Source: Bacilli bacterium (GTDB lineage: Bacteria; Bacillota_I; Bacilli_A; ML615J-28; CAG-698). From it: DNA of 64,000 nt. Where the stretch lies: positions 512,001 to 576,000 of the forward strand of contig JBMNLZ010000002.1 of the NCBI GenBank assembly GCA_050953065.1, in the 5' to 3' direction. The notes under the pieces were generated by a model, which made no database searches, was not told the DNA's origin, and saw only the letters and a program-made list of their open reading frames with translations. Positions 4,306-28,067 of the stretch are shown here, piece by piece (the stretch's first letter is position 1; the number at the start of each line of letters is the position of its first letter). A program made the translations under genes and the position numbers.

Positions 4306-5154
4306 ATGTATAAGGTATTAGAAAAAAGAAATTTAAATCCAAGTGTAGGTTTTTTAAAAATTGAAGCGCCGTTAGTTTCAAGAAGGGCTGAACCTGGGCA
4401 ATTTATTATCCTAAGAGCAAACGAAGAAGGCGAAAGAACACCTTTTACTATTTATGATTATGATAGAGAAAAAGGTACTATTAGTATAATCTTTCAAATT
4501 GTTGGCGCTACTACTAGAAGATTAGATGCATTAAAAGTAGGAGATTATATTTTAGATGTTGTAGGTCCTTTAGGAAAAGCGGTAGAATTTGATAATGTTA
4601 AAGATGCAATCGTAGTAGGTGGTGGAGTGGGATGTGCGATAGCATTTCCAATTGTTAAAAAACTTCATAATCTAGGAATAAATGTTACTTCAATCATTGG
4701 CTTTAGAAATAAAGATTTAGTAATTTTAGAAGATGAGTTTAAAAAAGTGAGCAATGACTTTTATCTTATGACAGATGATGGGTCACATGGTGAAAAAGGA
4801 ATGGTAACTGATGCTTTAAGAAGATTACTTGAAAAGAAAAAATATGATAAAGTATATGTTATTGGACCTTTGATAATGATGAAGTTTGTATCTTTACTAA
4901 CAAAAGAATTTAATACTTCAACTGTTGTTAGTATGAATTCAATTATGGTTGATGGAACTGGAATGTGTGGAGGCTGTAGAGTAACAGTTGGTGGAGAAGT
5001 AAAGTTTGCATGTGTTGATGGACCTGATTTTGATGGACACTTAGTTGATTTTGATGAAGCAATTCAAAGAAGCAGAATTTATGCTGATGTTGAGAAAAAG
5101 CGGGATGAGGCTACGTGCAATTTGTTTAAGGTGAAAAAAGATGAACTTAAGTAA
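4306..5154 (+). CDS. nfnA: NfnA/SudB-like flavoprotein subunit (FAD/NAD, 2Fe-2S)
   Basis: PGQFIILR, GPLG, GGGVG and MVDGTGMCGGCRV...FACVDGPDF motifs. Confidence 0.85.
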   Translation: MYKVLEKRNLNPSVGFLKIEAPLVSRRAEPGQFIILRANEEGERTPFTIYDYDREKGTISIIFQIVGATTRRLDALKVGDYILDVVGPLGKAVEFDNVKDAIVVGGGVGCAIAFPIVKKLHNLGINVTSIIGFRNKDLVILEDEFKKVSNDFYLMTDDGSHGEKGMVTDALRRLLEKKKYDKVYVIGPLIMMKFVSLLTKEFNTSTVVSMNSIMVDGTGMCGGCRVTVGGEVKFACVDGPDFDGHLVDFDEAIQRSRIYADVEKKRDEATCNLFKVKKDELK

Positions 5155-6526
5155 GAAAAAAAATGAAATGCCTTCTCAAGCACCTTTTGAAAGGATAAAA
5201 AACTTTGATGAGGTTGCTTTAGGTTACACTTTTGAGATGGCGCTAGATGAAGCGTCTAGATGTTTAAATTGTAAGAATCCACCTTGTGTTAAGGGTTGTC
5301 CTGTAAATATTAATATTCCAAGGTTTATTTCAAAAATAAAAGAAAAAGAAATTAAAGAAGCATATGATGTAATTAGTGAATATAGTCTTTTTCCAAGTAT
5401 TTGTGGTAGAGTTTGTCCTCAAGAAACTCAATGTGAAGCACAATGCGTTAGAGGAAAAGCAGGAGAGCCTGTTGGAATTGGTTATTTAGAAAGATTTGTA
5501 GCTGATTATGTTTATGAAAACAAAAGTAAAAGAAGTATTATTAAAGAAAAAGATAATAATATTAAAGTTGCAGTAGTTGGTTCTGGTCCTGCAGGCTTAA
5601 CTTGCGCATCAGAACTTGCAAGAAGAGGATATAGGGTAACTATCTTTGAAGCATTACATGCTGCAGGTGGAGTTTTAGCATATGGAATTCCTGAGTTCAG
5701 ATTACCTAAAAAAATCTTAGCAGATGAAATAGAAAGACTAAAAAGTTTAGGTGTAGAAATTCTAACAAATGTTATTATTGGTAAATCTTTAACAATTGAA
5801 GATATTTTTAGTGATGGTTATAAGGCAGTTTATCTTGGTACTGGAGCTGGTCTTCCTAAATTTATGAAGATTCCTGGAGAAAATGCTAATGGTGTCTTTT
5901 CTGCTAATGAATTCTTGACAAGAATTAATTTAATGAAAGCATATAAGGAAGGTTATGAAACACCAATTTATAGAGCTAACAAGGTTGCAGTTGTAGGTGG
6001 TGGAAATGTTGCAATGGATGCTGCAAGATGTGCTAAAAGGCTAGGAGCAAATGAGGTTTATATAATTTATAGACGTAGTGAAAAGGAAATGCCTGCAAGA
6101 CTTGAAGAAGTACATCATGCAAAAGAAGAAGGAATTAAATTTATGTTACTAAGCAATCCAACTGAAATTGTTGCTGAAAACGGTAAAGTAGTTGGAATTA
6201 AATGTGTTAAAATGGAATTAAAAGAAACTGATTCAAAGGGTAGAATGACTCCAGTTGAAATTAAAGATAGTGAATTCTTTACCAAAGTTGATGCTGTAAT
6301 TATGGCTTTAGGAAATCATCCAAATCCTGTATTAACAAAAACAACAGATAATTTAGAAGTTGACTCTAGAGGTTGTTTAATAGTTGATGAAAACTATCAA
6401 ACTTCTAGAAAGGGTATTTTTGCAGGTGGTGATGCTGTAACAGGAGCTGCAACAGTAATCTCTGCGATGGGAGCAGGGAAGGTTGCTGCTAAAAACATTG
6501 ATGAATATTTAAAAAATTCTAAATAA
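5141..6526 (+). CDS. nfnB: NfnB/SudA-like (GltD-like) subunit; with nfnA likely an electron-bifurcating transhydrogenase
   Basis: RCLNCKNPPCVKGCP, CGRVCPQETQCE, GSGPAG and GGGNVAMD motifs; overlaps nfnA; no large GltB subunit adjacent. Confidence 0.85.
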   Translation: MNLSKKKNEMPSQAPFERIKNFDEVALGYTFEMALDEASRCLNCKNPPCVKGCPVNINIPRFISKIKEKEIKEAYDVISEYSLFPSICGRVCPQETQCEAQCVRGKAGEPVGIGYLERFVADYVYENKSKRSIIKEKDNNIKVAVVGSGPAGLTCASELARRGYRVTIFEALHAAGGVLAYGIPEFRLPKKILADEIERLKSLGVEILTNVIIGKSLTIEDIFSDGYKAVYLGTGAGLPKFMKIPGENANGVFSANEFLTRINLMKAYKEGYETPIYRANKVAVVGGGNVAMDAARCAKRLGANEVYIIYRRSEKEMPARLEEVHHAKEEGIKFMLLSNPTEIVAENGKVVGIKCVKMELKETDSKGRMTPVEIKDSEFFTKVDAVIMALGNHPNPVLTKTTDNLEVDSRGCLIVDENYQTSRKGIFAGGDAVTGAATVISAMGAGKVAAKNIDEYLKNSK

Positions 6527-9173: not shown

Positions 9174-12100
9174 ATGAATAAATATAGAATCTTTGTTGAA
9201 AAAAAAGAAGGCTTTCAAATAGAAGCTAAAGCATTAGCAAATGAATTTAATAGTAATTTAAATCAAAAAATAAGAAATGTAAGATTTATCAATATATATG
9301 ATGTTTTCAATATCTCAAAAGAATTATTAGAAAAAGCTAAAAGTTTAGTTTTTGCTGATAAAGTTCAAGATGTAATATATGATGATATTAAAGATTTAAA
9401 AATTGGAAATAATCAATTTTTTGCAATTGAATTTTTACCAGGTCAATTTGATCAAAGAGCAGATAGTACAAAACAACTAATTGCATTTATTGATCCAAAA
9501 GCTGAAGTTTTTGTAAAGACTGGTAAGTTAATTGTTTTAGAAGGCGAAGTTGATTTAGAAAAAGTAAAAGGATATTATATCAATAAAATTGAAACTAGAG
9601 AAAAAGATTTAAATGTTTTAAATTATAGTGATAATGATTTGCCAAAACCAGTTGGTTTTGTTGAAGATTTTTTTGATTTATCTTCAAAAGAATTAGTTGA
9701 TAAATTTCAACTAGCAATGTCAGTTAAAGACATGGATATGATAAAAGAACATTATACGAGTGAGGCAAGAAAACCAACTGTAACTGAAATTAAAATGTTA
9801 GATACTTATTGGTCAGATCATTGTCGTCATACAACATTTGAAACAGAACTTGATATTGAAATTAAGGATAAAAGAATAAAACAAGCTTTCGAAAAATATT
9901 TATCAATGAGAAACGTTTTAAAGCGTGAAGCTAAGCCTGTTACATTAATGGATATGGCTAAGATAAACATGCTTTATGAAAAAAATCAAAATAATTTAAA
10001 AGATTTAGAAATTTCAGAAGAAACTAATGCATGTAGTATTTATATAGATGTTGATGTAGATGGAAAAATAGAAAAATGGTTATTGATGTTTAAAAATGAA
10101 ACTCATAATCATCCTACTGAAGTAGAACCTTTTGGTGGGGCTTCAACTTGTGTGGGTGGTGCTATTAGAGACCCATTAAGTGGAAGAAGCTATGTATATC
10201 AAGCACTTCGTGTAACTGGAGCAGCTGATATTACAAAACCAATCTCTGAAACTTTAGAAGGAAAACTACCTCAAAGAGTGATTTCTAAAAAAGCTGCTTT
10301 AGGTTATTCTTCTTATGGAAATCAAATTGGTTTACCTGCAAGTTATATTAAAGAGATTTTTCATGAGGGATATTTAGCTAAAAGAATGGAATTAGGAGCT
10401 GTAATTGCTGCTTGCCCTGTTGAAAATGTTATTAGAAAAACTCCACAAGAAGGAGATGTTGTAATCTTACTTGGTGGAAGAACTGGAAGAGATGGGATTG
10501 GTGGAGCAACAAGTTCATCTAAACAACACACTGATACATCTTTAGAACAATCAGCAGCTGAAGTGCAAAAAGGTAATGCTCCTGAAGAACGTAAAATTCA
10601 AAGATTGTTTAGAAAAGCAGAAGTAACTACGTTAATTAAAAAAGCTAATGATTTTGGTGCAGGTGGAGTTAGTGTTGCAATTGGTGAATTAGCAGATGGT
10701 TTAGAGATCTATTTAGATAAAGTTCCAGTTAAATATAAAGGTTTAAATGAAACTGAACTTGCTATATCAGAGTCTCAAGAAAGAATGGCAGTTGTAGTTA
10801 GTAAAAAAGATGTAGAAAAGTTTATTAAACTATCAAGTGAAGAAAACTTAGAAGCAACAGTTGTTGCTAAGGTAACTTCAAATAATCGTTTAATAATGAA
10901 ATATAATGATAAAGTAGTAGTTAATTTAAGTAGAGATTTTATCAATACAAATGGTGCAAGACAGAATGCTAAAGTTGTTATTGCTGAAGCAAATTATGCA
11001 GAACTTGCTAAAACTTGTAAAACTACTAATTTAAAAGAAGATATAGTTACTAATTTAAGTGATTTAAATGTTTGTAGTCAAAAAGGATTAATCGAAATGT
11101 TTGACTCAACAATTGGTGCATCTACAGTTTTGATGCCTTATGGTGGAAAATATCAAGAAACTCCAACTCAAGGTTCAGTTGGATTAATCCCAGTATTGGA
11201 AGGTAATACTAAAACATGTTCTATAATGACTGTTGGATATAATCCTGTTTTATCAAGTATTAGTCCATATCATGGAGCTAAATATGCGATTGTTGAATCA
11301 ATGGCAAAACTAGTTGCTATGGGTGGAGAGTATGAAAAAGTGAGATTTACTTTCCAAGAGTATTTTGAAAAATTAGGTAAAGATAGTTCTAAATGGGCTA
11401 AACCTACTGCAAGCCTATTAGGAGCAGTTGAAATATTAAATGAATTTAATTTAGCATCAATTGGTGGTAAAGATTCAATGAGTGGAACATTTAATGATTT
11501 AAATGTACCTCCTGCTTTAATATCTTTTGCTGTTACAACAGCAAATAGTGATAATATTGTATCACCTGAATTAAAATCATCAGGAAACTATTTGTATTTA
11601 GTAAAAGCAAATTATGATAAAGACTATTTACCAAATGCTTCTTTATTAAAGAAAAACTTTAAATTAGTAGAAAAGTTAATTAAAGAAAAGACTATTGTTT
11701 CAAGTTATGCTTTAGAGTTTGGTGGACTATCAGCAGCTTTAATTAAAATGTCTTTAGGAAATAAATTAGGTTTAGATGTTTCAACTAAAGAAAATCTATT
11801 TGATATAACTTATGGAAATATAGTAATTGAGTCTACAAAAGAACTAACTCTAGATAATTTTATTAAATTAGGTAAAGTAACAGATGGAACTATTATAATA
11901 AATGGCTGTACTTTAACTCATGAAGAAGCACTTAAAGCTTTAAAAGCACCTCTTGAAAAGATTTATCCAGAATATGGTAGAAGTGTAAATAGTAATTTAA
12001 GTATTTCTAAAGATTGTTATGATAAAGTTAGTCCTAAATTTAATAAAACTAAAGTTAATGTATTAATTCCAGTCTTTCCTGGAAGTAATAATGAATATGA

Positions 12101-12848
12101 TATTTATAAAGCGTTTCTTGAAGAAAAAGCTAATCCGAAAATGTTAGTATTTAAGAATCTAACATTTAAAGATATTAGCAATTCGATTATTGAATTAAAA
12201 GAAGCAATTGATAAAACAGATATTCTTGTTATTGGTGGAGCTTTGCCAGCTGGAGATGGAAGTGATGGTTCTGGAAAATATCTTGCATGTATTTTAAATA
12301 ATCAAGAAATAAAAGAAGCAATAGAAAAATTAATTGCTAGAAAAGGACTAATTTTAGGAATTAGTAGTGGTTTCCAAGCTTTAGTAAAAGCGGGATTATT
12401 GCCATATGGAGACTTTAAAACAAAAGAGTCTTCACCTACTTTAGTAAAAAATGAAATCAACAGATATGTTTCTAAGTTTGTAAAAACAAGAGTTACGAGC
12501 CTAAAATCTCCTTGGCTTTCTTCGTTTGAAGTAGGAGAAGTTCATGAAGTTGCTATTAGCCAAGGTGAGGGTGGTTTTGTAGTAGATTTAGAAATGGCTA
12601 AAAATTTATTTGATAATGGGCAAGTTGCTTTTCAATATTGTGATTTTGAAGGGAAAGTAACGAATGATCCAAAATATAATCCAAATGGAAGTTTATATGC
12701 CATTGAAGGGATTATTTCAAAAGATGGATTGATTTTAGGAAAAATGGGACATTCTGAAAGAAAAGATGAAAATGCTTTTAAAAATATTTATGGAAATAAA
12801 GTTCAAAATATCTTTGCTAATGCAGTGAATTATTTTAAAGGCATTTAA
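9174..12848 (+). CDS. purL: Single-chain FGAM synthase with degenerate glutaminase site
   Basis: YWSDHCRHTTF, ETHNHPTEVEPFGGA and DFGAGG; the C-terminal GATase reads GISSGFQ instead of GICNGFQ. Confidence 0.95.
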   Translation: MNKYRIFVEKKEGFQIEAKALANEFNSNLNQKIRNVRFINIYDVFNISKELLEKAKSLVFADKVQDVIYDDIKDLKIGNNQFFAIEFLPGQFDQRADSTKQLIAFIDPKAEVFVKTGKLIVLEGEVDLEKVKGYYINKIETREKDLNVLNYSDNDLPKPVGFVEDFFDLSSKELVDKFQLAMSVKDMDMIKEHYTSEARKPTVTEIKMLDTYWSDHCRHTTFETELDIEIKDKRIKQAFEKYLSMRNVLKREAKPVTLMDMAKINMLYEKNQNNLKDLEISEETNACSIYIDVDVDGKIEKWLLMFKNETHNHPTEVEPFGGASTCVGGAIRDPLSGRSYVYQALRVTGAADITKPISETLEGKLPQRVISKKAALGYSSYGNQIGLPASYIKEIFHEGYLAKRMELGAVIAACPVENVIRKTPQEGDVVILLGGRTGRDGIGGATSSSKQHTDTSLEQSAAEVQKGNAPEERKIQRLFRKAEVTTLIKKANDFGAGGVSVAIGELADGLEIYLDKVPVKYKGLNETELAISESQERMAVVVSKKDVEKFIKLSSEENLEATVVAKVTSNNRLIMKYNDKVVVNLSRDFINTNGARQNAKVVIAEANYAELAKTCKTTNLKEDIVTNLSDLNVCSQKGLIEMFDSTIGASTVLMPYGGKYQETPTQGSVGLIPVLEGNTKTCSIMTVGYNPVLSSISPYHGAKYAIVESMAKLVAMGGEYEKVRFTFQEYFEKLGKDSSKWAKPTASLLGAVEILNEFNLASIGGKDSMSGTFNDLNVPPALISFAVTTANSDNIVSPELKSSGNYLYLVKANYDKDYLPNASLLKKNFKLVEKLIKEKTIVSSYALEFGGLSAALIKMSLGNKLGLDVSTKENLFDITYGNIVIESTKELTLDNFIKLGKVTDGTIIINGCTLTHEEALKALKAPLEKIYPEYGRSVNSNLSISKDCYDKVSPKFNKTKVNVLIPVFPGSNNEYDIYKAFLEEKANPKMLVFKNLTFKDISNSIIELKEAIDKTDILVIGGALPAGDGSDGSGKYLACILNNQEIKEAIEKLIARKGLILGISSGFQALVKAGLLPYGDFKTKESSPTLVKNEINRYVSKFVKTRVTSLKSPWLSSFEVGEVHEVAISQGEGGFVVDLEMAKNLFDNGQVAFQYCDFEGKVTNDPKYNPNGSLYAIEGIISKDGLILGKMGHSERKDENAFKNIYGNKVQNIFANAVNYFKGI

Positions 12849-12897
12849 ATAAATTTGAAAAATAAGATTTAGGTAAGATGAATCCTAAATAGAATGG

Positions 12898-14280
12898 ATG
12901 GATATGGAAAAGGTATTCAAAAATAAAATTAATGAAGAATGTGGTGTTGTAGCAGTATTTAATTGCCATGATGCCTCAGAAATTGTATTTTATGCTTTGC
13001 ATGCTTTACAACATCGTGGTCAAGAAGGTTGCGGAATGGTATGTGCTAATAATGGTGATTTTAAATTAATTAAAGGTCCAGGATTAGTTCATGAAAACTT
13101 TCATGATAATACTTTAAAAAAGCTAGTTGGCGATATGGGAATAGGACATGTGAATTATCCAAGCATTAGAAGCGGTAATGATGTTTCGATGTTACAACCA
13201 TATTTGTTTAGACATTGTGACGGAGACTTTGCCATCGCTAATAATGGTAGTATGACTAATTATCAAGAAATTAGACTTTTTCTTGAGCATAATGGTAGTA
13301 TATTTCAATCAAACTCTGATGCTGAAATGATTGCTCATTTAATCAAGAAAGAACAAAATGCCAACATGTTAGAATCTATAAAAGGAGCATTAAATAAAAT
13401 AGAAGGTAGTTTTTCATGTGTTATTATGACTGAAGATAAAATTTATGCATGTCGTGATAAACATGGTTTTAAACCTTTAGCACTTGGAAAATTAAATGGT
13501 GGTTATATCGTTGTTTCTGAAACATGTGCTTTTGAACTTTGTGTAGCCGATTATATTAGAGATATAGAACCAGGTGAAATCTTAGTGATTTCTAAGGATG
13601 GTTTACATAGTGAAAAATACAGTAAAGATATTAATCATCATATGTGTGCTATGGAATATATTTATTTTGCAAGACCAGATAGCGAGATTGAAGGAATTAA
13701 TGTTCATTTATTCCGCCGTGAAACTGGAAGACTATTAGCTAAAGAAAGCCCAGTTGAGGCTGATGTTGTTGTAGGGGTTCCTGATTCATCACTTTCTGCT
13801 GCTATGGGATATGCTGAGGAAAGTAAGATTCCAAATGAAACTGGATTGATTAAAAATAAATATGTTGGAAGAACTTTTATTCAAGTTGCCCAAAGATTAA
13901 GAGAAAGAACAGTTCGTATGAAACTATCTACTGTTTCAGCGGTTGTAAAGGGCAAAAGAGTTGTTTTAGTAGATGATTCAATTGTTAGAGGAACAACATC
14001 TAAAAGAATTGTTACACTTTTAAGAGAAAGTGGAGCAAAAGAAGTGCATGTTAGAATTTCTTCTCCTCAAATGCAACATTCTTGTTATTATGGAGTTGAT
14101 ACTTCTACAGAAGAAGAATTAATTGGAGCTAATAAAACACTTGAAGAAATTAAAGAAGCAATTGGAGCAGATACTCTTGCATTCTTATCAGTTGATTCTT
14201 TATATAAAGCTAGTAAGAGAGCACAGTTATGTACTGCATGTTTTAATGGAGTATATCCAACAAAAATTAGAAAGAAATAA
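12898..14280 (+). CDS. purF: Amidophosphoribosyltransferase (propeptide, Fe-S type)
   Basis: [31 protein letters not shown] and CTAC motifs. Confidence 0.95.
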
Positions 14281-14303
14281 ATGTAAAGGATTTTTTAAAA
14301 AAT

Positions 14304-15323
14304 ATGAGTAAAATATATAAAAGTGCTGGCGTTGATTTAGAAGCAGGATATGAAGGTGTACGTTTAATTAAAGAACACGTTCTAAAAACAAAAAGATTAG
14401 GGATGATGGGCGGAATTGGTTCTTTTGGTGGGATGTTTGATTTATCTATTTTAAAGTATAAAGAACCGGTTTTAGTAAGTGGAACTGATGGAGTTGGAAC
14501 AAAATTAATGATTGCTCAACTTTTAGATATTCATGATACGATTGGACAAGATGTTGTAGCGATGTGTGTTAATGATGTTTTAGCACAAGGAGCAGAACCA
14601 ATATTCTTTTTAGATTATATTGCAATTGGAAAAAATGATCCTTTAAAAGTTTCAGAGATTGTTAAAGGAGTAAGTGATGGGTGTATAAAAGCAGGCGCTG
14701 CTTTAGTTGGAGGGGAAACTGCTGAGATGCCTGATATGTATCAAAAAGATGAATATGACATTGCAGGGTTTACTGTAGGAGTTGTTGAAAAAAGTAAGAT
14801 AATAGATGGCTCTAAGGTAAGCGCTGGGGATGTTTTAATTGGAATTAAATCTTCTGGAATTCATTCAAATGGTTATTCTTTAGTTAGAAAGATAGTTTTT
14901 AAAGACCAAAAACTTAATTTAGAAGAACAAGTAGGACCTAAAAAATTAAAAGAATGGTTAATTGAACCTACTAGAATCTATGTAAAGAGTGTTTTAGAAG
15001 TTATTAAAAATGTTGACGTTCATGCGATTGCTCATATAACAGGTGGTGGATTTGATGAAAATATTCCAAGAGCCTTAAATAAAAATCAAGGAGCAACAAT
15101 CTTTGAAGAAAAACTTCCTAAATTAGAAATTTTTAAATATTTAGAAGAAAAAGGTGGAGTTAATCACCGTGAAATGTATAATGTTTTTAATATGGGAGTT
15201 GGAATGATTATTATCGTTAAAAAAAATGATGCTAAAAAAGTAATTGAAATTTTAAATAAAAATGGTGAAGAAGCATTTGAAATTGGAGTAGTTACTACTA
15301 AAGAAGGAATTGAAATATTATGA
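14304..15323 (+). CDS. purM: AIR synthetase
   Basis: [23 protein letters not shown] and [11 protein letters not shown] motifs. Confidence 0.95.
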
Positions 15324-15871
15324 ATATAGCAGTTTTTGCTTCTGGGAATGGTAGTAATTTTGAAGCCATTGCTAAAACAAAATTTAAAAAAATAAAAATA
15401 AAACTTTTAATAACTGATAAAGAGAATGCATATTGTATTGAAAGAAGTAAAAGGTTAAATATTCCTTATTTTGTTTTTCCGTATAAAAAGTTTAAATCAA
15501 AAAAAGAATATGAAGAAAACATTTTAAAAAAATTAAAAGAAGAAAAAATTGATGTTATAGTTTTAGCTGGTTATATGAGAATTTTAGAAGATACTATTCT
15601 AAATGCTTATGAAAATAAAATTATTAACATTCATCCTTCGCTATTACCTGCTTTTAAGGGAATGAATGCAATTGAAGAAGCCTATAAAGCAGGGGTAAAA
15701 ATTATTGGTATAACAGTTCATTATGTTAATAAAGAATTAGATGGTGGCGAAATAATCGCTCAAGAATGTTTTAAAATTAAGAATTTAACATTAAAAGAAA
15801 CGGAAGCTAAAATACATAAGCTAGAACATAAACTTTATCCGAAAGTGTTAAAAGAATTATTTGATAGGTGA
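15320..15871 (+). CDS. purN: GAR formyltransferase
   Basis: [15 protein letters not shown] and INIHPSLLP motifs. Confidence 0.95.
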
Positions 15872-15875
15872 TATT

Positions 15876-17111
15876 ATGAAAGTTTTAATAATAGGAAGTG
15901 GGGGACGCGAACACGCAATTGCCTCTTACATTGCAGCATCAAAACATAAACCACAAGTTTTTGTAGCAAAAGGAAATGCTGGGATGACTTGTGCAACGCT
16001 TGTTAATATTAATGAAGATGATAATAAAGCATTAGTTAGATTTGCTTTAAAGGAAAAAATTGATTTAACAATCGTTGGGCCTGAAGCTGCTTTAAATAAT
16101 GGGCTAGTTGATGACTTTAGAAAAAATAATTTACTAATCTTTGGACCAACAAAAGATGCGGCTAGAATTGAAAGCAGTAAAAAGTTTGCTAAAGAATTAA
16201 TGGAAAAATATGATATTCCAACCGCTAAATATAAAGCTTTTTCTAATTATGAAGACGCAATTGAATATATACAAAAAAACACCCTTCCTATGGTTATAAA
16301 ATATGATGGGCTTGCTGCTGGGAAAGGTGTTGTAATTGCTAACCTTTTTGAAGAAGCAGAAGAATTTTTAAAAGAAATCTTTTTAAAAGGTAAGTATGAC
16401 ACTAAAGAAGTTATTATTGAAGAATACTTAGAAGGTCCAGAATTTTCTTTAATGGCTTTTGTTAATAAAGATAAAGTTTATCCTATGGAAATAGCACAAG
16501 ACCATAAAAGAGCTTATGATTATGATATGGGGCCTAATACTGGTGGAATGGGTGCATATAGTCCTGTTAATATTATTTCTAAAGAAGATATTGACTATGC
16601 AGTAAAGAATATTATGGAAAAAACTGCCAAAGCATTAGTTAGTGAAGGAATCTGTTATTTAGGGGTTTTATATGGTGGTTTGATGAAAACCAAAGATGGA
16701 ATTAAAGTCATTGAGTTTAACGCAAGATTTGGAGACCCAGAAACTGAAGTAGTTTTACCTAGACTTAAGAATGATTTACTAGATGTAATATTAAATGTTA
16801 TTGCTAAAAAAGATTTTAAACTTAATTGGACAAATGATATATGTTTAGGTGTAGTAATGGCTTCAATTGGATACCCAGGAAATTACAAGAAAAATTGTGA
16901 AATAAGTAATATTCCAGAAGAAGATGTTTTTCATATGGGAACTAAAATAGAAGATGGCAAAATAGTAAATAATGGTGGTAGAGTTTTAATAGTTTTAGGA
17001 AAAGGTAAAACTTTTCTAGAAGCTAGAGAAAATGCATATAAGAAGGTAGCAGAAGTTCAATCTAAGAATTTATTTTTTAGAAAAGATATAGGCTATCAAA
17101 TGATTAAATAA
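15876..17111 (+). CDS. purD: GAR synthetase
   Basis: GSGGREHA, DGLAAGKGV, GPNTGGMGAY and EFNARFGDPE; start moved to ATG 15876 after AGGTGA RBS. Confidence 0.95.
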   Translation: MKVLIIGSGGREHAIASYIAASKHKPQVFVAKGNAGMTCATLVNINEDDNKALVRFALKEKIDLTIVGPEAALNNGLVDDFRKNNLLIFGPTKDAARIESSKKFAKELMEKYDIPTAKYKAFSNYEDAIEYIQKNTLPMVIKYDGLAAGKGVVIANLFEEAEEFLKEIFLKGKYDTKEVIIEEYLEGPEFSLMAFVNKDKVYPMEIAQDHKRAYDYDMGPNTGGMGAYSPVNIISKEDIDYAVKNIMEKTAKALVSEGICYLGVLYGGLMKTKDGIKVIEFNARFGDPETEVVLPRLKNDLLDVILNVIAKKDFKLNWTNDICLGVVMASIGYPGNYKKNCEISNIPEEDVFHMGTKIEDGKIVNNGGRVLIVLGKGKTFLEARENAYKKVAEVQSKNLFFRKDIGYQMIK

Positions 17112-20127
<3,016 letters not shown>

Positions 20128-20135
20128 GAGAAGAA

Positions 20136-21689
20136 ATGAAAGCATTAATAAGTGTTTTTTATAAAGATGGAATAGTTGATTTTGCAAAAAGATTAAATAA
20201 ATTAGGTGTAGAGATTGTTTCAACTGGTGGGACTTATAAAACGTTAAAACAAAACGATGTTCCTGTTTTAGAAGTTTCTGATTTAACAGGATTTAGGGAA
20301 TGTTTAGAAGGAAGAGTTAAAACTCTTCATCCTGTGATTCATGCAGGAATTTTAGCCAAAAGATCATCTGATGAACATATGAAACATTTAAAAGAACTAA
20401 AAATTGATACAATTGATTTTGTTGTAGTAAATCTTTATCCTTTTAAAGAGGTAATCTTAAAAGAGGATACGACATTTGATTTAGCAGTTGAAAACATAGA
20501 TATCGGTGGACCGACAATGTTAAGAGCTGCTGCTAAGAATTACCAAGATGTGGTAGTGATAGTTGACCCTAAAGATTATGAAAAAGTTTTAGATGAATTA
20601 GAAAAGACGAAAAATGTATCAATGGAAACAAGACTTTATTTAATGCAAAAAGTATTTGCTCATACAGCTGCATATGATGCATTAATAGCAAAATATTTAT
20701 CAAATAAAAGAGAAGATTATTCATTCCCAGAAAATTTAACTTTAGTATATGAAAAAGTTCAAGATATGAGATATGGAGAAAACCCTCATCAAAAAGCAAG
20801 CTTTTATAAAGATGTGTTAGATAATCGTGGCAATTTGCCAAGTGCAATTCAATTAAATGGTAAAGAATTATCTTTTAATAATATTAATGATACTAATGGT
20901 GCTTTAGAATTATTAAAAGAATTTGAAGAACCAACTGTTGTTGCATGCAAACATGGCAATCCATGTGGTGTTGGAAGTGCTGATAGTATATATGAGGCTT
21001 GGAGTAAAGCATTTAATGCAGACAAAGTTTCTATTTTTGGTGGAATTGTAGTTTTAAATAGAGAAGTTACTTTAGAAATAGCTTTAGAAATGAATAAAAT
21101 ATTTTTAGAAGTGATAGTTGCACCAAGCTATGAAAAAGAAGCTTTAGAAGTTTTACAATCAAAGAAGAACTTAAGAATCTTACAAATAAAAGAAGATATT
21201 ATGTTAAAACAATCAGAACATGCATATGATTTAAAGAAAATCAATGGCGGATTGATTGTTCAAACGGTAGATAGTATTATTTTAGGAGATTCTTTAAATA
21301 ATGTTACTAAGAAAAAACCAACAAAAGAAGAGATGGAAGATTTAATCTTTGCAATGAAGGTTGTTAAGTTTGCAAAATCAAATGGTATTGTAATTGCAAA
21401 AAATAAGCAAACTATTGGAATTGGTCCAGGTCAAGTTAATAGAATTTGGGCTGCTAAACAATCAATTGAACATGCTGGTGAGTTAATTGGTGAAGGAGTA
21501 ACAAAAGGAGCAGTTTTAGCTTCAGATGCATTCTTTCCATTTGATGATGTTGTAAGAGTTGCTAATGATGCAGGAATTACTGCGATTATTCAACCAGGAG
21601 GATCTATAAAAGATCAAGATAGTATTGATAGATGTAATGAATTTAATATCGCAATGGTATTTACAGGAGTTAGACATTTTAAACATTAA
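20136..21689 (+). CDS. purH: Bifunctional AICAR formyltransferase/IMP cyclohydrolase
   Basis: [22 protein letters not shown] and SDAFFPF motifs. Confidence 0.97.
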
Positions 21690-21710
21690 AAAAATAGAAT
21701 GGAGTATCTT

Positions 21711-22574
21711 ATGAAAAATCTAAAAACATTAAAAGAATTAGAAATTAGCGAAATTTTAGAAATACTTAAAGATGCAAAAGAATTTAAAAACGGTATGGTT
21801 TATAAATTAAGCGATAAAGTTATAGCTAATTTATTCTTTGAACCATCTACAAGAACCCAAAACTCATTTAATATGGCAGCATTGAAACTTGATATGAAAG
21901 TAATCAATTTCAATGCTAATATGTCATCACTACAAAAAGGTGAATCTTTTTATGATACAGTTAGAACATTTGAAGCTTTGGGGGTAGATGCTTTAGTTAT
22001 TAGACATTCACAAGATAGATACTATGATGAATTAAAAAATATAAAAGTTCCGATAATCAATGCAGGGGATGGAGTTGTAAGCCATCCCAGTCAAACGTTA
22101 TTAGACCTTTTTACTATTTATGAAGAGTTTGGTAAGTTTGAAGGCTTAAATGTAATGATAGTAGGAGACATTAAACATTCAAGAGTAGCTCACGAAAATA
22201 TTGATATTATGAAACGCCTTGGAATGAATTGTTTTGTTTCGGGAGCTTTAGAGTTTAAGGAAGATGGTTTTGATTGGGATGATTTTGATGAAGGTTTAAA
22301 GAAAGCTGACATTGTAATGATGTTGAGAATTCAACATGAACGTCATCAAGAAAGGCTACAAATGTCTATTACTGAATATCTAGAAAAATATGGACTAACT
22401 CTTTATAGAGTAAATCAAATGAAGCCAAATGCAATAATCATGCATCCTGCTCCATTTAATAGAGGTGTTGAAATAGAAGGAGCAGTAGCTGAATGTGAAA
22501 AGTCTAGAATTTTTAAACAAATTGAAAATGGGGTTTATGTAAGACAAGCCATCATTAAAAGGAGTTTCTCATGA
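21711..22574 (+). CDS. pyrB: Aspartate carbamoyltransferase
   Basis: FFEPSTRT, HPSQTLLD and MHPAP; start placed at ATG 21711 after GGAG. Confidence 0.95.
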   Translation: MKNLKTLKELEISEILEILKDAKEFKNGMVYKLSDKVIANLFFEPSTRTQNSFNMAALKLDMKVINFNANMSSLQKGESFYDTVRTFEALGVDALVIRHSQDRYYDELKNIKVPIINAGDGVVSHPSQTLLDLFTIYEEFGKFEGLNVMIVGDIKHSRVAHENIDIMKRLGMNCFVSGALEFKEDGFDWDDFDEGLKKADIVMMLRIQHERHQERLQMSITEYLEKYGLTLYRVNQMKPNAIIMHPAPFNRGVEIEGAVAECEKSRIFKQIENGVYVRQAIIKRSFS

Positions 22575-23833
22575 TATTTACTTTAAAAAATGCTAGAATT
22601 TATATGAATAATAAATTCTTACAAAAAGATATTTTGGTATCAGATGGTAGGATATCTGAAATTGATACAGATATTGAAGAAGGAAGAATAATAGATTGTA
22701 AGAATAAGTTAGTTGCACCTGCTTTTATTGACCCGCATGTTCATGGTAGACAACCAGGATATGAATATAAAGAAACTATTGCAACAGTTACTAAAGCTGC
22801 TGCAAAAGGTGGCTATACTAAAATCTTTTTGATGCCTAATTTAAAACCTGTTCCAAGCAATTTGGAAAATCTGAACTTGATTTTTAATATTATAAAAAAA
22901 GATGCTTTAATTGATTGTTATCAATTAGCATCAATTACTAAAAATCAATCAGGAAAAGATGGATTAAGTGATATTGAAAGGTTAGCTCCTTATGTTGTTG
23001 GATTTTCTGATGATGGGAAGGGCGTAGTTGATAGCGGAACAATGTATGAGGCAATGTTGAAAGCTAAGAAATATAATAGAGCAATTCTAGCTCATGCTGA
23101 AGATGAATCGCTTCTTTATGGTGGGGTAATTCATAAAGGGCAAATTAGTGAGGAACAAAACATACCAGGCATTCTTTCGGCTAGTGAAACTGTACAAGTA
23201 GCAAGAGATTTAGTGCTAGCAGAAGCAACAAAAGTTCATTATCATTTATGTCATGTATCAGCTAAAGAAACTCTTTCTTTAGTTAAATATTTTAAAGATA
23301 GAGGCGTTAATGTAACGGTTGAGGCTACACCTCATCATATTTTGTTAAATGAAACAGATTTAAAAGATGATGGAATTTATAAGGTTAATCCACCGCTTCG
23401 TAGTAAAGAAGATCAAGAAGCAATTATTAAGGCTCTTCAAAATGGTGTGATTGATATGATTGCAACAGATCATGCTCCACATAGTGAAGAAGAAAAAAAT
23501 AAAGGGTTATTAAACTCTTCCTTTGGTATGGTTGGAATTGAAACTTCTTTTGGATTATTGTATACTTATTTGGTTAAACAAAAGAAGATAAGTTTAGAAA
23601 AACTTTTAGATATGATGAGTCTAAATGTAAGCAAAGCATTTGGAATTGAGAGTAATCAAATAAAAGTTGGAAATAGTGCTAATTTAGTCGTTATTGATTT
23701 AGAGAAAGAGTTTATTATAGATAAGAATAAATTTGTAAGTAAAGGGAAAAACACTCCTTTTAATGGATATAAATGTTTTGGACAAATTATAATGACGGTT
23801 TCAAAAGGGGAAATAGTATATGAATTACAGTAA
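22571..23833 (+). CDS. pyrC: Dihydroorotase
   Basis: DPHVH, KVNPPLR and ATDHAPH motifs. Confidence 0.95.
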   Translation: MIFTLKNARIYMNNKFLQKDILVSDGRISEIDTDIEEGRIIDCKNKLVAPAFIDPHVHGRQPGYEYKETIATVTKAAAKGGYTKIFLMPNLKPVPSNLENLNLIFNIIKKDALIDCYQLASITKNQSGKDGLSDIERLAPYVVGFSDDGKGVVDSGTMYEAMLKAKKYNRAILAHAEDESLLYGGVIHKGQISEEQNIPGILSASETVQVARDLVLAEATKVHYHLCHVSAKETLSLVKYFKDRGVNVTVEATPHHILLNETDLKDDGIYKVNPPLRSKEDQEAIIKALQNGVIDMIATDHAPHSEEEKNKGLLNSSFGMVGIETSFGLLYTYLVKQKKISLEKLLDMMSLNVSKAFGIESNQIKVGNSANLVVIDLEKEFIIDKNKFVSKGKNTPFNGYKCFGQIIMTVSKGEIVYELQ

Positions 23834-24893
23834 AAAGATAGTTTTAGAAAATGGAATAGTTTTTGAAGGAATTGGATATGGTGCTGATGCTGAAGTGATT
23901 GGTGAAATATTGATAAATACTTCAATGGTAGGATATCAAGAAGTTTCTGCTGATTCGGTTTATCTAGACAAAATTGTAGTTATGACATATCCTTTAATTG
24001 GAAATTATGGAATCAATTCTGATTATGATAAAACTAAAAAAATGAAGCCTTCAGCGTTAGTTGTTAGGGATTATAATGATAAACCATCTAACTTTAGATC
24101 AATTAAATCTTTAGCAGAACTTGCTGAGGAAAATGGGGCTGTAATTTTATCAGATATAGATACAAGATATTTAACGAATATCTTAAGAAAAGAAGGTTCG
24201 ATGATTGGTATTATTACTGATACTTCTAATTCGTTAGAATATTGTATAGAAAAAATTAAAGCATATAAAGAAAAACCTAAAACAACTTCAAAAGTTAGTG
24301 TTAAGAAGAAATGGGTTTCAAAAACTGAAAATCCGAATTATGATGTTGTTGTAGTGGATTTAGGAACAACTGTTGAGCTAGTTAATGCATTAAATCAAAA
24401 TAGATGTAATGTAACTGTTGTTCCAATTACTGTCAAAGCAGAAGATATAAAAGAATTACATCCAGATGGAGTAATTTTATCAAATGGACCAGGTAATCCT
24501 GAAGATTATACGGAAGTAATAGATTTAGTTAAAAAGATTCAAGGTAAATTACCTTTGAATGGAATTTCTCTTGGAATGCAAATTATAGCTTTAGCAAACA
24601 ACGCTAAAACTAGAAAATTAGAATTAGGACATTTCGGTTGTAATATTCCTGTAAGAGAAATTGAAAGTGGTAAAATAAGAATTACTACACAAAATAGTGC
24701 ATATGAAGTAATTGAGGACTCTTTAGAAAAAACTGATTTTGAAATTGTTTTTAAAAATGTTTTGGATAATACTATTCAAGGTATCAAAGATAATAAAAAG
24801 TTAATTTATGCAATTCAATATTATCCTGATGAATCAACTGATTTTTATGGCATCTTTATTGAAAATATCAAAATACAGAAGCAGGGGGCCTAA
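23820..24893 (+). CDS. carA: Carbamoyl-phosphate synthase small subunit, catalytically degenerate
   Basis: GYQE, TYPLIGNYG and SNGPGNP retained; GISLGMQ (for GICLGHQ) and QYYPD (for QYHPE). Confidence 0.9.
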   Translation: MNYSKKIVLENGIVFEGIGYGADAEVIGEILINTSMVGYQEVSADSVYLDKIVVMTYPLIGNYGINSDYDKTKKMKPSALVVRDYNDKPSNFRSIKSLAELAEENGAVILSDIDTRYLTNILRKEGSMIGIITDTSNSLEYCIEKIKAYKEKPKTTSKVSVKKKWVSKTENPNYDVVVVDLGTTVELVNALNQNRCNVTVVPITVKAEDIKELHPDGVILSNGPGNPEDYTEVIDLVKKIQGKLPLNGISLGMQIIALANNAKTRKLELGHFGCNIPVREIESGKIRITTQNSAYEVIEDSLEKTDFEIVFKNVLDNTIQGIKDNKKLIYAIQYYPDESTDFYGIFIENIKIQKQGA

Positions 24894-24896
24894 ATT

Positions 24897-27800
24897 ATGC
24901 CAAAAAGAACAGATATAAAGAAAATCTTAGTTATAGGATCTGGACCAATTGTAATTGGTCAAGCGGCTGAATTTGACTATGCAGGAACCCAAGCTTGTCT
25001 TGCTTTAAAAGAAGAAGGATATAAAGTAGTTTTGATAAACTCAAATCCAGCTACAATTATGACAGATACAATCATTGCAGATAAAGTATATATGGAACCA
25101 CTTAATTTAGAGTTTGTATCTAGAATTATCAGAATGGAACGCCCTGATGCATTATTACCAACTTTAGGCGGTCAAACTGCTTTAAATTTAGCTGTTCAGT
25201 TATATGAAAAAGGAATTTTAGCTGAATGTAGAGTAGAAGTAATTGGAACTTCAATTGATTCTATTGAGCATGGAGAAGATAGAGATTTATTCAAAAAACT
25301 ATGTGAAAGAATTTCACAACCTGTTTTGGAAAGTTTTATTGCAACAAACAAAAAAGAAGCTATTCAATATGCTAATCAAATAGGTTATCCTATTATTGTT
25401 AGACCTGGATATACTTTAGGAGGAACTGGTGGAGGCTTTGCAGATAACGATGCTCAATTATTATATTTAGTTGATAATGCTTTAAGTTTATCTTCAAATA
25501 ATACTGTTTTGATTGAAAAATCAATTAAGGGTTATAAAGAAATAGAATTTGAATGTATGAGAGATCATAAGGGGACAACTATTACTATTTGTTGTATGGA
25601 AAATATTGATCCAGTAGGTGTACATACTGGAGATTCAATGGTAGTTTGTCCGAGTCAAACTCTTGCAAGCAAAGAATATAATATGTTAAAACAAGCAAGC
25701 ATAAAAATTATTCAAGCTTTAGACATTATAGGTGGTTGTAATATTCAGTTTGCACTAGACCCTAATAGTTTTGATTATTATGTGATTGAGGTTAATCCTC
25801 GAGTTTCAAGATCATCAGCTCTTGCTAGTAAAGCAAGTGGTTATCCAATTGCTAGAGTAAGTTCAAAAATTGCAGTTGGTTTAAATTTAGATGAAATCGA
25901 TCTTTCATGTACAAAAGCATGCTTTGAACCTTCTTTAGATTACATTGTTGTAAAATTGCCAAGATTTCCATTTGATAAGTTTGTAAAAGCTAACAGAAAT
26001 TTATCTACTCAAATGAAAGCAACTGGCGAGGTTATGAGTGTTGGTAGAACATTTGAAGAAGCTTTTTTAAAGGGGATTAGATCTTTAGAGATTGGTGTTA
26101 ATCATATTTATCTTAAAAAGATGGCTGATAAATCAACTGAAGATTTACTTAAAAAAATAGAAAAACCTACTGATGAGGGGATTTTTGTTATTGCTGAGTT
26201 GTTAAGAAGAGATATTTCTGTTAGACAAATAAATTCTGTTACTAAAATAGATGCATATTTTTTAGATAAAATTAAATTAATAATTGATTTTGAAAAAGTA
26301 TTTAAAGCAGATCCTAGTTTAGATAATATTAAAAAGGCTAAACGTATGGGCTTTTCTGATGCATATCTAGCAGAAGTTATGGGAATGGATGAAATTGAAT
26401 TTTTCTTATTAAGAAAAGAAAATAATATTTTTCCAGTTTACCATATGATAGACACTTGCGCAGGTGAGTTTGATAGTTATGTGCCTTATTTATATTCAAC
26501 ATATGAATCATTTAATGAATCAATTGTGACTGAAAAAGAAAAAGTAATAGTTCTAGGGTCTGGTCCTATTAGAATAGGTCAAGGAGTTGAGTTTGACTAT
26601 TCAACAGTGCATGCCATTTGGGGTATTAAAGAAATGGGGTATGAGGCTATTGTAATTAATAATAACCCTGAAACTGTTTCAACGGATTATTTAATTTCTG
26701 ATAAATTATATTTTGAAGCTCTAACAATTGAAGATGTAATGAATATTATTACATTAGAAAAACCAAAAGGAGTGATTGTAGAACTTGGTGGTCAAACTGC
26801 TATTAATTTAGCAGAAAGACTTGATAGATTAAATATTCCAATTATTGGTAGTGATCCTAAAGCAATTGAAAGAGCAGAAAATAGAAAAAGCTTTGAAGCT
26901 TTAGTAAGAGAATTAAAAATTCCTCAACCAAAAGGGAAAACTGTTAATAATATGGCTGATGGAATAAAGACAGCAGAAGAGATAGGTTATCCTGTTTTAG
27001 TTCGTCCATCTTATGTTTTAGGTGGAAGAGCTATGCAAATTGTTTATGAAAATGAAGGATTAGTTAGATATTTAAACGAAGCCTTCTTAGTAGACAGCAA
27101 ACAACCTGTTTTAATTGATAAATATGTAAGTGGAAAAGAAGCTGAAGTAGATGCAGTATGTGATGGGGTTGATGTTTTTATTCCTGGTATAATGGAACAT
27201 ATTGAAAGAACAGGAGTTCATTCAGGAGATTCAATTAGTGTGTATCCACCAGTATCTTTAAGTGATAAAGTAAAAGAAAAGATTTGTGAGTATACAATAA
27301 AATTAGGCCTTGAAATAGGGATTGTTGGTTTGTTTAATATCCAGTTTATTGTTGAAAAGAATGATCAAGTATCTGTAATTGAGGTAAATCCTCGTTCAAG
27401 TAGAACAGTACCTTTTATTTCCAAAGCAACAAAAGTTAATCTTGCCAACATTGCAACAAAAGTTATGCTTGGTAAAAGTTTGAAAGAACAAGGCTTTACA
27501 ACTTGTTTGCTTGAAAAAGAATCAATTTATTATGTAAAAGCTCCGACATTTTCTTATTCTAAAATTGGTGGGTTAGATGCTGTTTTAAGTCCTGAAATGA
27601 AATCAACAGGAGAAGCAATAGGATATGATTCTTCTTTAAATAGGGCATTATATAAAGCATTAAAAGCAAGTAATCAAAAAGTTATTAATTATGGAACAGT
27701 TTTTGTAACGGTATCTGATAAAACAAAAGAAGAAGCATTGCCACTGGTTAGAAGATTTTATGAATTAGGTTTTAATATTGTAGCAACAAGAGGAACGGGT

Positions 27801-28067
27801 ATGTTTTTAAAAGAACATGGTATTAAAACTAGAGTTATGAAAAAAATTAGTGAGAATTCTGAAGAAATATTAGAAGAAATTAGAAAAGGATATATTTCTT
27901 ATATTATAAATACAGTAAGCAGTTATGATGACAGTGGTACTAGGGATGGGGCTATTATTAGAAAAGTTGCAGTTGAAAATAATATTACACCATTTACATC
28001 TCTTGATACTGTAAGAGTTTTATTAGATGTCCTTGATGAAATTACTATGAAGGTGAGAACAATTTAG
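24897..28067 (+). CDS. carB: Carbamoyl-phosphate synthase large subunit
   Basis: MPKRTDI, IGSGPIVIGQAAEFDY, two ATP-grasp halves with EVNPR. Confidence 0.97.
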   Translation: MPKRTDIKKILVIGSGPIVIGQAAEFDYAGTQACLALKEEGYKVVLINSNPATIMTDTIIADKVYMEPLNLEFVSRIIRMERPDALLPTLGGQTALNLAVQLYEKGILAECRVEVIGTSIDSIEHGEDRDLFKKLCERISQPVLESFIATNKKEAIQYANQIGYPIIVRPGYTLGGTGGGFADNDAQLLYLVDNALSLSSNNTVLIEKSIKGYKEIEFECMRDHKGTTITICCMENIDPVGVHTGDSMVVCPSQTLASKEYNMLKQASIKIIQALDIIGGCNIQFALDPNSFDYYVIEVNPRVSRSSALASKASGYPIARVSSKIAVGLNLDEIDLSCTKACFEPSLDYIVVKLPRFPFDKFVKANRNLSTQMKATGEVMSVGRTFEEAFLKGIRSLEIGVNHIYLKKMADKSTEDLLKKIEKPTDEGIFVIAELLRRDISVRQINSVTKIDAYFLDKIKLIIDFEKVFKADPSLDNIKKAKRMGFSDAYLAEVMGMDEIEFFLLRKENNIFPVYHMIDTCAGEFDSYVPYLYSTYESFNESIVTEKEKVIVLGSGPIRIGQGVEFDYSTVHAIWGIKEMGYEAIVINNNPETVSTDYLISDKLYFEALTIEDVMNIITLEKPKGVIVELGGQTAINLAERLDRLNIPIIGSDPKAIERAENRKSFEALVRELKIPQPKGKTVNNMADGIKTAEEIGYPVLVRPSYVLGGRAMQIVYENEGLVRYLNEAFLVDSKQPVLIDKYVSGKEAEVDAVCDGVDVFIPGIMEHIERTGVHSGDSISVYPPVSLSDKVKEKICEYTIKLGLEIGIVGLFNIQFIVEKNDQVSVIEVNPRSSRTVPFISKATKVNLANIATKVMLGKSLKEQGFTTCLLEKESIYYVKAPTFSYSKIGGLDAVLSPEMKSTGEAIGYDSSLNRALYKALKASNQKVINYGTVFVTVSDKTKEEALPLVRRFYELGFNIVATRGTGMFLKEHGIKTRVMKKISENSEEILEEIRKGYISYIINTVSSYDDSGTRDGAIIRKVAVENNITPFTSLDTVRVLLDVLDEITMKVRTI

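Follow-up and report, generated by a model that had tools for sequence, protein, structure and literature searches.

Serine in place of the catalytic cysteine in the glutaminase domains of PurL, GuaA and CarA of a Bacilli bacterium, and recurrent loss of this residue across its order

We analyzed a stretch of 64,000 nucleotides (referred to as the window) from a Bacilli bacterium of the GTDB lineage Bacillota_I; Bacilli_A; ML615J-28; CAG-698, which corresponds to positions 512,001 to 576,000 of contig JBMNLZ010000002.1 in the NCBI GenBank assembly GCA_050953065.1. The source genome (G000) comprises 1.55 Mb in three contigs with a G+C content of approximately 29.5%, and is estimated to be 94% complete, an estimate that applies to all searches of G000 described below. 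A relative of the same genus is designated G001, and positions are window coordinates unless a locus is named. According to the list of open reading frames (ORFs) and their NCBIfam names, the window contains a nucleotide synthesis cluster of 17 genes on the plus strand (8691–31026), in the order purE-purL-purF-purM-purN-purD-guaB-guaA-purH-pyrB-pyrC-carA-carB-pyrK-pyrD-pyrF-pyrE. All of these ORFs are open, and at least one curated NCBIfam cut-off is exceeded by each of the 17 genes. Textbooks name glutamine as the nitrogen donor in the bacterial synthesis of purines, GMP and carbamoyl phosphate. We found that the nucleophilic cysteine of the class I glutamine amidotransferase (GATase) domain is replaced with serine in three enzymes encoded by this cluster, namely PurL, GuaA and CarA.

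The purL gene (9174–12848, plus strand, as are all cluster features below) encodes a full-length, large single-chain formylglycinamidine ribonucleotide (FGAM) synthase of 1224 amino acids, which scored 1691.6 bits against the NCBIfam model TIGR01857 (cut-off 1057) over residues 5–1221 and contains the Pfam linker, AIRS_C and GATase_5 domains. The GATase_5 domain, or glutaminase domain, spans residues 960–1221 (12051–12836; Pfam E = 1e-61), and its glutamine pocket is remodelled. When aligned with the solved structure of Salmonella PurL, Ser1064 (AGT, 12363–12365; motif GISSGFQ) was placed onto the nucleophilic Cys of GVCNGCQ, and His1193-Ser-Glu1195 (12750–12758; GHSER) onto MPHPER, with the HxE pattern retained. 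Gln1130 (CAA, 12561–12563) lies in SQGEG, where the family has SHGEG, and GGALPAGD is found where the family has GGFSxGD. Among the 119 nearest database homologues, both GICNGFQ and SHGEG were present in all 119 and SQGEG in none; GHSER was present in 114. At sites of the GATase_5 domain that are invariant in G001 and four outgroups, G000 exhibited 15 changes of its own, compared with 1 in G001, and most of the 15 fall in five conserved motifs (PGTNC, GGFSxGDEP, GICNGFQ, NRH and SHGEG). The change from NRH to NRY is common to G000 and two other genomes, G007 and G024. An apparent convergence of the 'ALP' motif between PurL of G000 and PurL of genus g7 vanished under more careful alignment and was dropped.

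The guaA gene (18574–20127) encodes a full-length, two-domain GMP synthase of 517 amino acids, with a score of 747.7 bits against NF000848 (cut-off 400) and matches to the Pfam domains GATase (E = 1.8e-44), NAD_synthase and GMP_synt_C (E = 3e-37). Ser91 (AGT, 18844–18846; motif GISYGMQ) was aligned onto the Cys of GICYGMQ in a solved GMP synthase structure. In an alignment of relatives, Gly139-Glu140 (18988–18993; WMGEGD) takes the place of the Ser-His pair of the family (WMSHGD). The Cys and MSH(G/S)D were found together in 80/80 nearest copies from named genomes, and the Cys was found in 118 of 120 database relatives, the two bearers of Ser belonging to the same clade as G000. The Ser-His pair was likewise kept in 120/120 relatives outside this clade, and Gly-Glu occurs only within it. 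C91S, S139G and H140E are the only changes in conserved motifs of G000 GuaA; the His and Glu of the catalytic triad are retained as His176-Pro-Glu178 (19099–19107; FHPE), as judged by structure and relatives.

The carA gene (23820–24893) encodes the small subunit of carbamoyl phosphate synthetase (CPS), with 357 amino acids, and was recognized by NF009475 (340 bits, cut-off 221), TIGR01368 (336.5 bits, cut-off 307.35) and the Pfam GATase model (E = 1.5e-31). It is directly followed by carB as a separate ORF (24897–28067; TIGR01369, 1450.5 bits, cut-off 1027). Ser250 (24567–24569; motif GISLGMQ) was aligned onto the Cys of GICLGHQ in the solved structure of E. coli CarA; its codon is TCT in G000 and TCA in G001. 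Comparison with the structure and with relatives identified two further replacements: Ser293-Ala294 (24696–24701; QNSAY), where the family has QNH(S/G)(Y/F), and Tyr335-Pro-Asp337 (24822–24830; QYYPD), which replaces the His-Pro-Glu of the triad (QYHPE in relatives). The His-containing strand of the glutamine site, invariant in each family (SHGEG in PurL, MSHGD in GuaA, QNH(S/G) in CarA), is altered in all three enzymes. Of the 120 nearest homologues, 111 are canonical with Cys, three constitute the Ser clade and six constitute a separate Gly clade. In a tree of CarA sequences, which was a quick tree only, at least three separate Cys-less clades were nested among canonical ones, and the Ser clade sat on a long stem (1.04 changes per column) with short branches beyond it. 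This shape is consistent with rapid change when Cys was lost and a later return of constraint.

The original prediction, made from the sequence alone, had described the three serines with these codons, the pocket changes SQGEG, GGALPAGD and WMGEGD, the survival of HxE in PurL and GuaA, and the full length of the ORFs. The alignments to solved structures and relatives and the NCBIfam scores bear out each of these descriptions, and the comparison with Pfam models that it had proposed recovered a GATase_5 or GATase domain in complete form in each protein. It had missed the loss of the triad in CarA.

Serines of this kind might in principle stem from errors in sequencing, assembly or binning that affected the three codons. 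The same residues were found, however, in cluster members from other, independent assemblies with 93–98% identity, namely in three GuaA and four CarA sequences of full length and in three sequences of PurL that span the site. Many accompanying substitutions occur in the same pockets, and the codon for the CarA serine differs between G000 and G001. We therefore regard the probability of an artefact as negligible. One sister strain harbors a PurL with GISNGFQ and SQSEG. In another assembly, from a near-identical strain, PurL is present in two pieces on one contig (P0363, 1081 amino acids; P0365, 147 amino acids) with the break inside the glutaminase domain, a result of either misassembly or a frameshift in the strain itself. 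A recoding of Cys codons was also rejected, in agreement with the original prediction: the 17 cluster genes contain 89 TGT or TGC codons, a tRNA-Cys(GCA) is present, the cysteines of GuaB (GSICTT) and Asd (NPNCST) are both encoded by TGT, and the Cys of PurF is also intact.

We then compared the age of the three losses. G001 has the CarA serine together with the YYP motif, but its GuaA and PurL have Cys and canonical pockets. In a third lineage, a CarA with Ser (P0006, 70% identical) was found, and a Cys-bearing GuaA (P0127) is probably encoded on the same contig. Because CarA carries Ser in both of these lineages while their GuaA, and the PurL of G001, keep Cys, the CarA loss is the older one: it is old and at the level of the genus, whereas the losses in PurL and GuaA are recent and at the level of the species cluster. 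The earlier view that the three enzymes lost Cys in parallel accordingly holds in that all three are affected, but not with respect to timing.

The Ser-bearing GATase domains are still under purifying selection. Within the Ser clade, the divergence of the GATase domain relative to the remainder of the protein was 2.0–2.1 for GuaA, compared with a median of 1.66 for Cys-bearing pairs (interquartile range 1.09–2.5; 78 pairs), and 1.0–1.1 for CarA (deep pairs), compared with a median of 1.17 (1080 pairs). By this measure, the Ser-bearing domains do not diverge faster than their Cys-bearing counterparts. Between G000 and G001, the dN/dS values of the GATase and the other domain were 0.13 and 0.17 in CarA, 0.17 and 0.17 in PurL, and 0.24 and 0.07 in GuaA, with a range of 0.06–0.24 across all domains tested; these values, computed by the NG86 method, are rough only, as dS was approximately 0.8–1.0 and saturated. 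The synthetase domains are 95–96% identical between strains.

These measures bear on the possibility of reductive decay, in which nucleotides would be salvaged and the de novo pathways would be in the course of being lost, with the glutaminase sites going first. Several observations are in keeping with decay. The genes are patchily distributed in the order (PurL GATase domain, 18/106 genomes; CarA, 23/106), PurL is split inside its glutaminase domain in the near-identical assembly mentioned above, and the excess of changes in G000 PurL extends to the synthetase part (18 changes in G000 versus 4 in G001), rather than being confined to the GATase domain. In addition, the searches of G000 and G001 found no CTP synthase gene (pyrG); it occurs in 24 genomes of a sample of 41, and 21 of the 24 relatives of the same family are among those that have it. 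However, all 17 cluster genes are open and above curated full-length cut-offs, dN/dS is low in every domain tested, the synthetase domains are nearly identical between strains, and the CarA serine has lasted in three or more lineages, at identities as low as 70%, with its replacement motifs conserved. Decay is accordingly an unlikely explanation.

To place these findings, a census of 106 genomes of the order, including G000, was taken. CarA was found in 23 genomes, only 5 of which have a canonical form; 17 are without Cys (3 with Ser, namely G000, G001 and G040; 13 with Gly; 1 with Asn), and in the remaining genome (G039) the Cys is present but the triad His is replaced, so that an intact triad is missing in 18/23. 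The PurL GATase domain was found in 18 genomes and has Cys in 14; the other four are G000 with Ser and G105, G007 and G024 with Gly. The latter three are all the genomes of genus g7 in the census, and their PurL domains exhibit decay to differing degrees. GuaA was found in 55 genomes: 25 full-length with Cys, 3 full-length without Cys (G000 with Ser; G008 and G076 with Gly), and 27 in a short form only. Of the 106 genomes, only G000 lacks Cys in all three enzymes, but the pattern is not special to G000 and runs through the order.

The GuaA sequences of G008 and G076 (loci L014/L031 and L189) both read LGIGYGMH, in which Cys is changed to Gly and a conserved Gln to His; the triad His is also missing in G076 (FYPEN). 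Since these two genomes are unrelated, and other genomes of the genus of G008 have Cys, this pattern arose twice. The short GuaA consists of the ATPPase and C-terminal domains and begins at approximately residue 200 of the full-length protein, with frames of 311–352 amino acids except for two cut by contig ends; one genome (G096) has both a full-length form with Cys and a short form. Two short-form loci were examined (L016, 1498–2475, minus strand; L018, 1489–2427, plus strand). In G023 the gene directly follows guaB, and in G007 it is flanked by a ROK-family gene on its upstream side and by guaB on its downstream side; no glutaminase gene was found beside it at either locus. A GuaA-type glutaminase was also not found by whole-genome search in 13 short-form genomes. 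Short forms occur mostly in one clade, and repeated deletion of the glutaminase domain was not demonstrated, as one or two origins suffice. As judged from its sequences, genus g7 is also predicted to be without a competent class I glutaminase in the purine pathway, having a dead PurL domain and a short GuaA. In the same genus, guaB of G007 is covered by two frames that overlap (288 and 201 amino acids; L018, 2447–3313 and 3310–3915) and PurL of G024 as three consecutive frames of 188, 857 and 310 amino acids; these are either split genes or frameshifts.

We searched the rest of G000 for other amidotransferases. Matches to PF00117 were limited to three proteins: GuaA, CarA and a peptidase C26-type protein of 218 amino acids with a class I GATase fold, the gene for which adjoins coaD (C1:243083-243739; locus L003, 1237–1893, plus strand). 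This protein keeps Cys (LLGICRGIQ) and a WHPE motif and is the sole class I fold in G000 that retains the nucleophile, so the proposal that all class I GATase domains had lost Cys applies to PurL, GuaA and CarA but not to this fourth one. PF13507 matched PurL only, and no second PurQ-type domain was found; an intact second glutaminase subunit elsewhere in G000 was found by neither the PF00117 nor the PF13507 search. Other amidotransferase genes, which had also been proposed for inspection, gave a mixed picture: NadE lies within an open frame of 252 amino acids, the size of a single-domain enzyme, and, besides pyrG, no GlmS, GatA-type amidase or AsnB was found in G000. A glutamate dehydrogenase is present.

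PurF (12898–14280; 460 amino acids), a class II amidotransferase, keeps its nucleophilic Cys15 (TGT, 12940–12942) after a 14-residue leader. It has Asn86 (13153–13155) in place of the Arg of HVRY and Asn115 (13240–13242) in place of the His of HNGN, and both changes also occur in G001. Across 150 representative relatives, the HVRY Arg was found in 135 and the Cys in 135, with Ser or Gly at the Cys position in 8. In E. coli PurF, this Arg binds glutamine; the glutamine site of this one remaining amidotransferase may be altered too.

Immediately after the pyr genes lies a tryptophanase-family gene (31334–32779; NF009709, 585.7 bits); enzymes of this family release ammonia from tryptophan. Upstream of the cluster, a gene pair at 4306–6526 was assigned by family models to a PyrK-like FAD/NAD-binding protein and an 'NADPH-dependent glutamate synthase' of the GltA type (TIGR01316, 587.6 bits). 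Such pairs, we presume, are often NfnAB-type transhydrogenases rather than glutamate synthases. A large class II amidotransferase of the GltB type was not found in G000, where PF13522 matched PurF only.

Because Cys is replaced with Ser at the nucleophile position and further invariant sites are lost, the glutaminase function of the three domains was read as dead. We consider it likely that PurL, GuaA and CarA are ammonia-dependent synthetases with retained, non-hydrolytic amidotransferase domains. In this model, the glutaminase halves would be unable to hydrolyze glutamine, and the synthetase halves would take free NH3 directly. The dead domains would be retained since the synthetase needs them for folding, subunit contacts or the ammonia path. 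This would be the same solution as that of vertebrate CPS I.

Published enzymes provide analogies for this model. In the GMP synthetase PfGMPS, the C89A mutant lost glutamine-dependent activity and kept NH4Cl-dependent activity, as the original prediction had stated for Cys-to-Ser mutants of such enzymes, and the ATPPase domain is active with ammonia when isolated (PMC4673825). External ammonia also serves in vitro as a substrate for GMP synthetases of the two-domain type and for ATPPase subunits (PMC10526850). E. coli PurF and AsnB can no longer use glutamine once the nucleophile is replaced with Ser or Ala, and in PurF ammonia-dependent synthesis is spared (PMC3261824). By analogy with these mutants and with CPS1, loss of glutamine-dependent activity with use of NH3 is the most likely outcome in G000, and a high-ammonia habitat is inferred as the permissive condition. 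The earlier idea that nucleotide synthesis had been rewired to ammonia with the GATase domains as scaffolds gains from the loss of invariant pocket residues, from purifying selection and from the existence of relatives with a GuaA lacking the domain altogether, but the rewiring is partial, as the PurF Cys and glutamine synthetase remain.

The His and Glu that survive in GuaA and PurL also allow a different explanation, already raised in the original prediction, that their Ser-His-Glu sites are still active as serine-type glutaminases or as amidases for other amides, feeding ammonia to the synthetase. Peptidase E (family S51) has a Ser-His-Glu arrangement in a related fold. Purifying selection on the GATase domains is compatible with such activity, and two residues whose equivalents bind glutamine in PfGMPS are still present in GuaA, namely Gln in GxSYGMQ and Asp in the GD motif (PMC4673825). 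For CarA, however, this explanation is impossible, since His and Glu are gone, and it therefore survives for GuaA and PurL only. PurL is moreover without further invariant motifs, including GGFS, SHGEG and NRH, and GuaA is without the Ser-His pair present in all relatives outside the clade. Replacement of the nucleophile kills glutamine use in known enzymes (Ser or Ala in PurF and AsnB, PMC3261824; Ala in PfGMPS, PMC4673825), and relatives do without a glutaminase domain altogether. We accordingly regard active serine sites as improbable. A broader form of this idea, which we consider quite unlikely, is that the Ser domains of GuaA and PurL were re-tooled, either as Ser-His-Glu amidohydrolases for another amide donor or as glutamine-sensing modules that gate ammonia uptake. 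If this were true, the order would represent a natural experiment in which thiol amidotransferases became serine enzymes or sensors.

Several observations weigh against ammonia-dependent synthetases. The glnA gene, the absence of which had been expected in the original prediction, is present in G000. PurF, the enzyme of the first purine step, retains its nucleophilic Cys, and glutamine probably remains the donor for this one step. An Amt ammonium transporter was not found in G000, a result that says little either way at 94% completeness. The NH4+ Km of GMP synthetases ranges from tens of mM to more than 100 mM (PMC10526850), so that NH3 could be used only if ammonia were abundant in the setting or if the affinity were improved. 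The retention of glutamine-binding equivalents in GuaA, described above, is a further such point, and since His and Glu of the triad persist in GuaA and PurL, hydrolysis by Ser, at a slow rate or in an altered form, may occur in these two enzymes. With respect to rates, the dN/dS estimates are rough, the excess of changes in PurL is shared by its synthetase part, and in a relative-rate test of GuaA the excess on the G000 branch was small and not significant (GATase, 6 changes in G000 versus 3 in G001; ATPPase, 5 versus 1).

Among known systems, vertebrate CPS1 is one of the closest in kind. Human CPS1 is ammonia-specific and cannot use glutamine, has Ser294 in place of the catalytic Cys, and keeps an inactive ancestral glutaminase domain, with a separate entry path proposed for the external ammonia that it takes; every other CPS type uses glutamine (PMC4655335). 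Human CPS1 was also a sequence match to G000 CarA (5dot_A, E = 1.1e-37). The two differ in that CPS1, an enzyme activated by N-acetylglutamate, is one fused polypeptide, whereas G000 has carA and carB as separate genes, and in that CPS1 keeps more of the site in the alignment, whereas G000 CarA is without the triad His and Glu. They also differ in origin, as G000 CarA nests among canonical bacterial CarA sequences in the quick tree. The CPS of G000 would function in the manner of CPS I without belonging to the CPS I family. A convergent shift of CPS towards ammonia is described for CPS III of the ureotelic fish Alcolapia, but this is a vertebrate urea-cycle enzyme (PMC7657897).

The best-matching solved chain for G000 CarA was 1c30_B of the E. 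coli CPS small subunit, which reads GISLGHQ, compared with GICLGHQ in 1t36_B. We take 1C30 to be the E. coli C269S mutant. The natural CarA of G000 resembles this laboratory mutant, although the mutant keeps the His, Glu and QNHGF that are lost in G000 CarA.

For GMP synthase, PfGMPS C89A and ATPPase-only units are alike in that NH4Cl-dependent GMP synthesis is left when there is no nucleophile to use glutamine (PMC4673825; PMC10526850). These are, however, laboratory constructs or archaeal subunits with a glutaminase partner in vivo, whereas Ser and the partner-less short form are natural in this order. Bacterial GMP synthetases are described as two-domain enzymes with a conserved Cys-His-Glu triad (PMC10526850). 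The archaeal PurF' is likewise a natural amidotransferase homologue without the N-terminal Cys and has been proposed to depend on ammonia (PMC3261824), but it is a class II (Ntn) and archaeal protein, and the PurF of G000 has its Cys.

Ammonia-specific relatives of glutamine amidotransferases are accordingly already known, namely CPS I, single-domain NadE and the proposed case of archaeal PurF'. In the literature searched, which includes few subscription journals and may miss earlier mentions, we found neither a naturally Cys-less bacterial PurL, GuaA or CarA nor a partner-less short bacterial GuaA described. The surprise lies mainly in the repeated, multi-enzyme and order-wide pattern: an order of small, wall-less-type Bacilli has abandoned glutaminase function repeatedly in three enzymes, by changing Cys to Ser or Gly, by losing the whole triad, or by having a GuaA without the glutaminase domain. 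In G000, the remainder of each of the three enzymes is still conserved. If these enzymes do use ammonia, the annotation 'glutamine-hydrolyzing' would be wrong for PurL, GuaA and CarA of this group, and a direct route from ammonia into nucleotides would have to be added to metabolic models of gut, rumen and digester communities. The lineage would also provide natural, graded material on the role of a 'dead' domain in ammonia entry, allostery or stability, a question that is also posed by CPS1.

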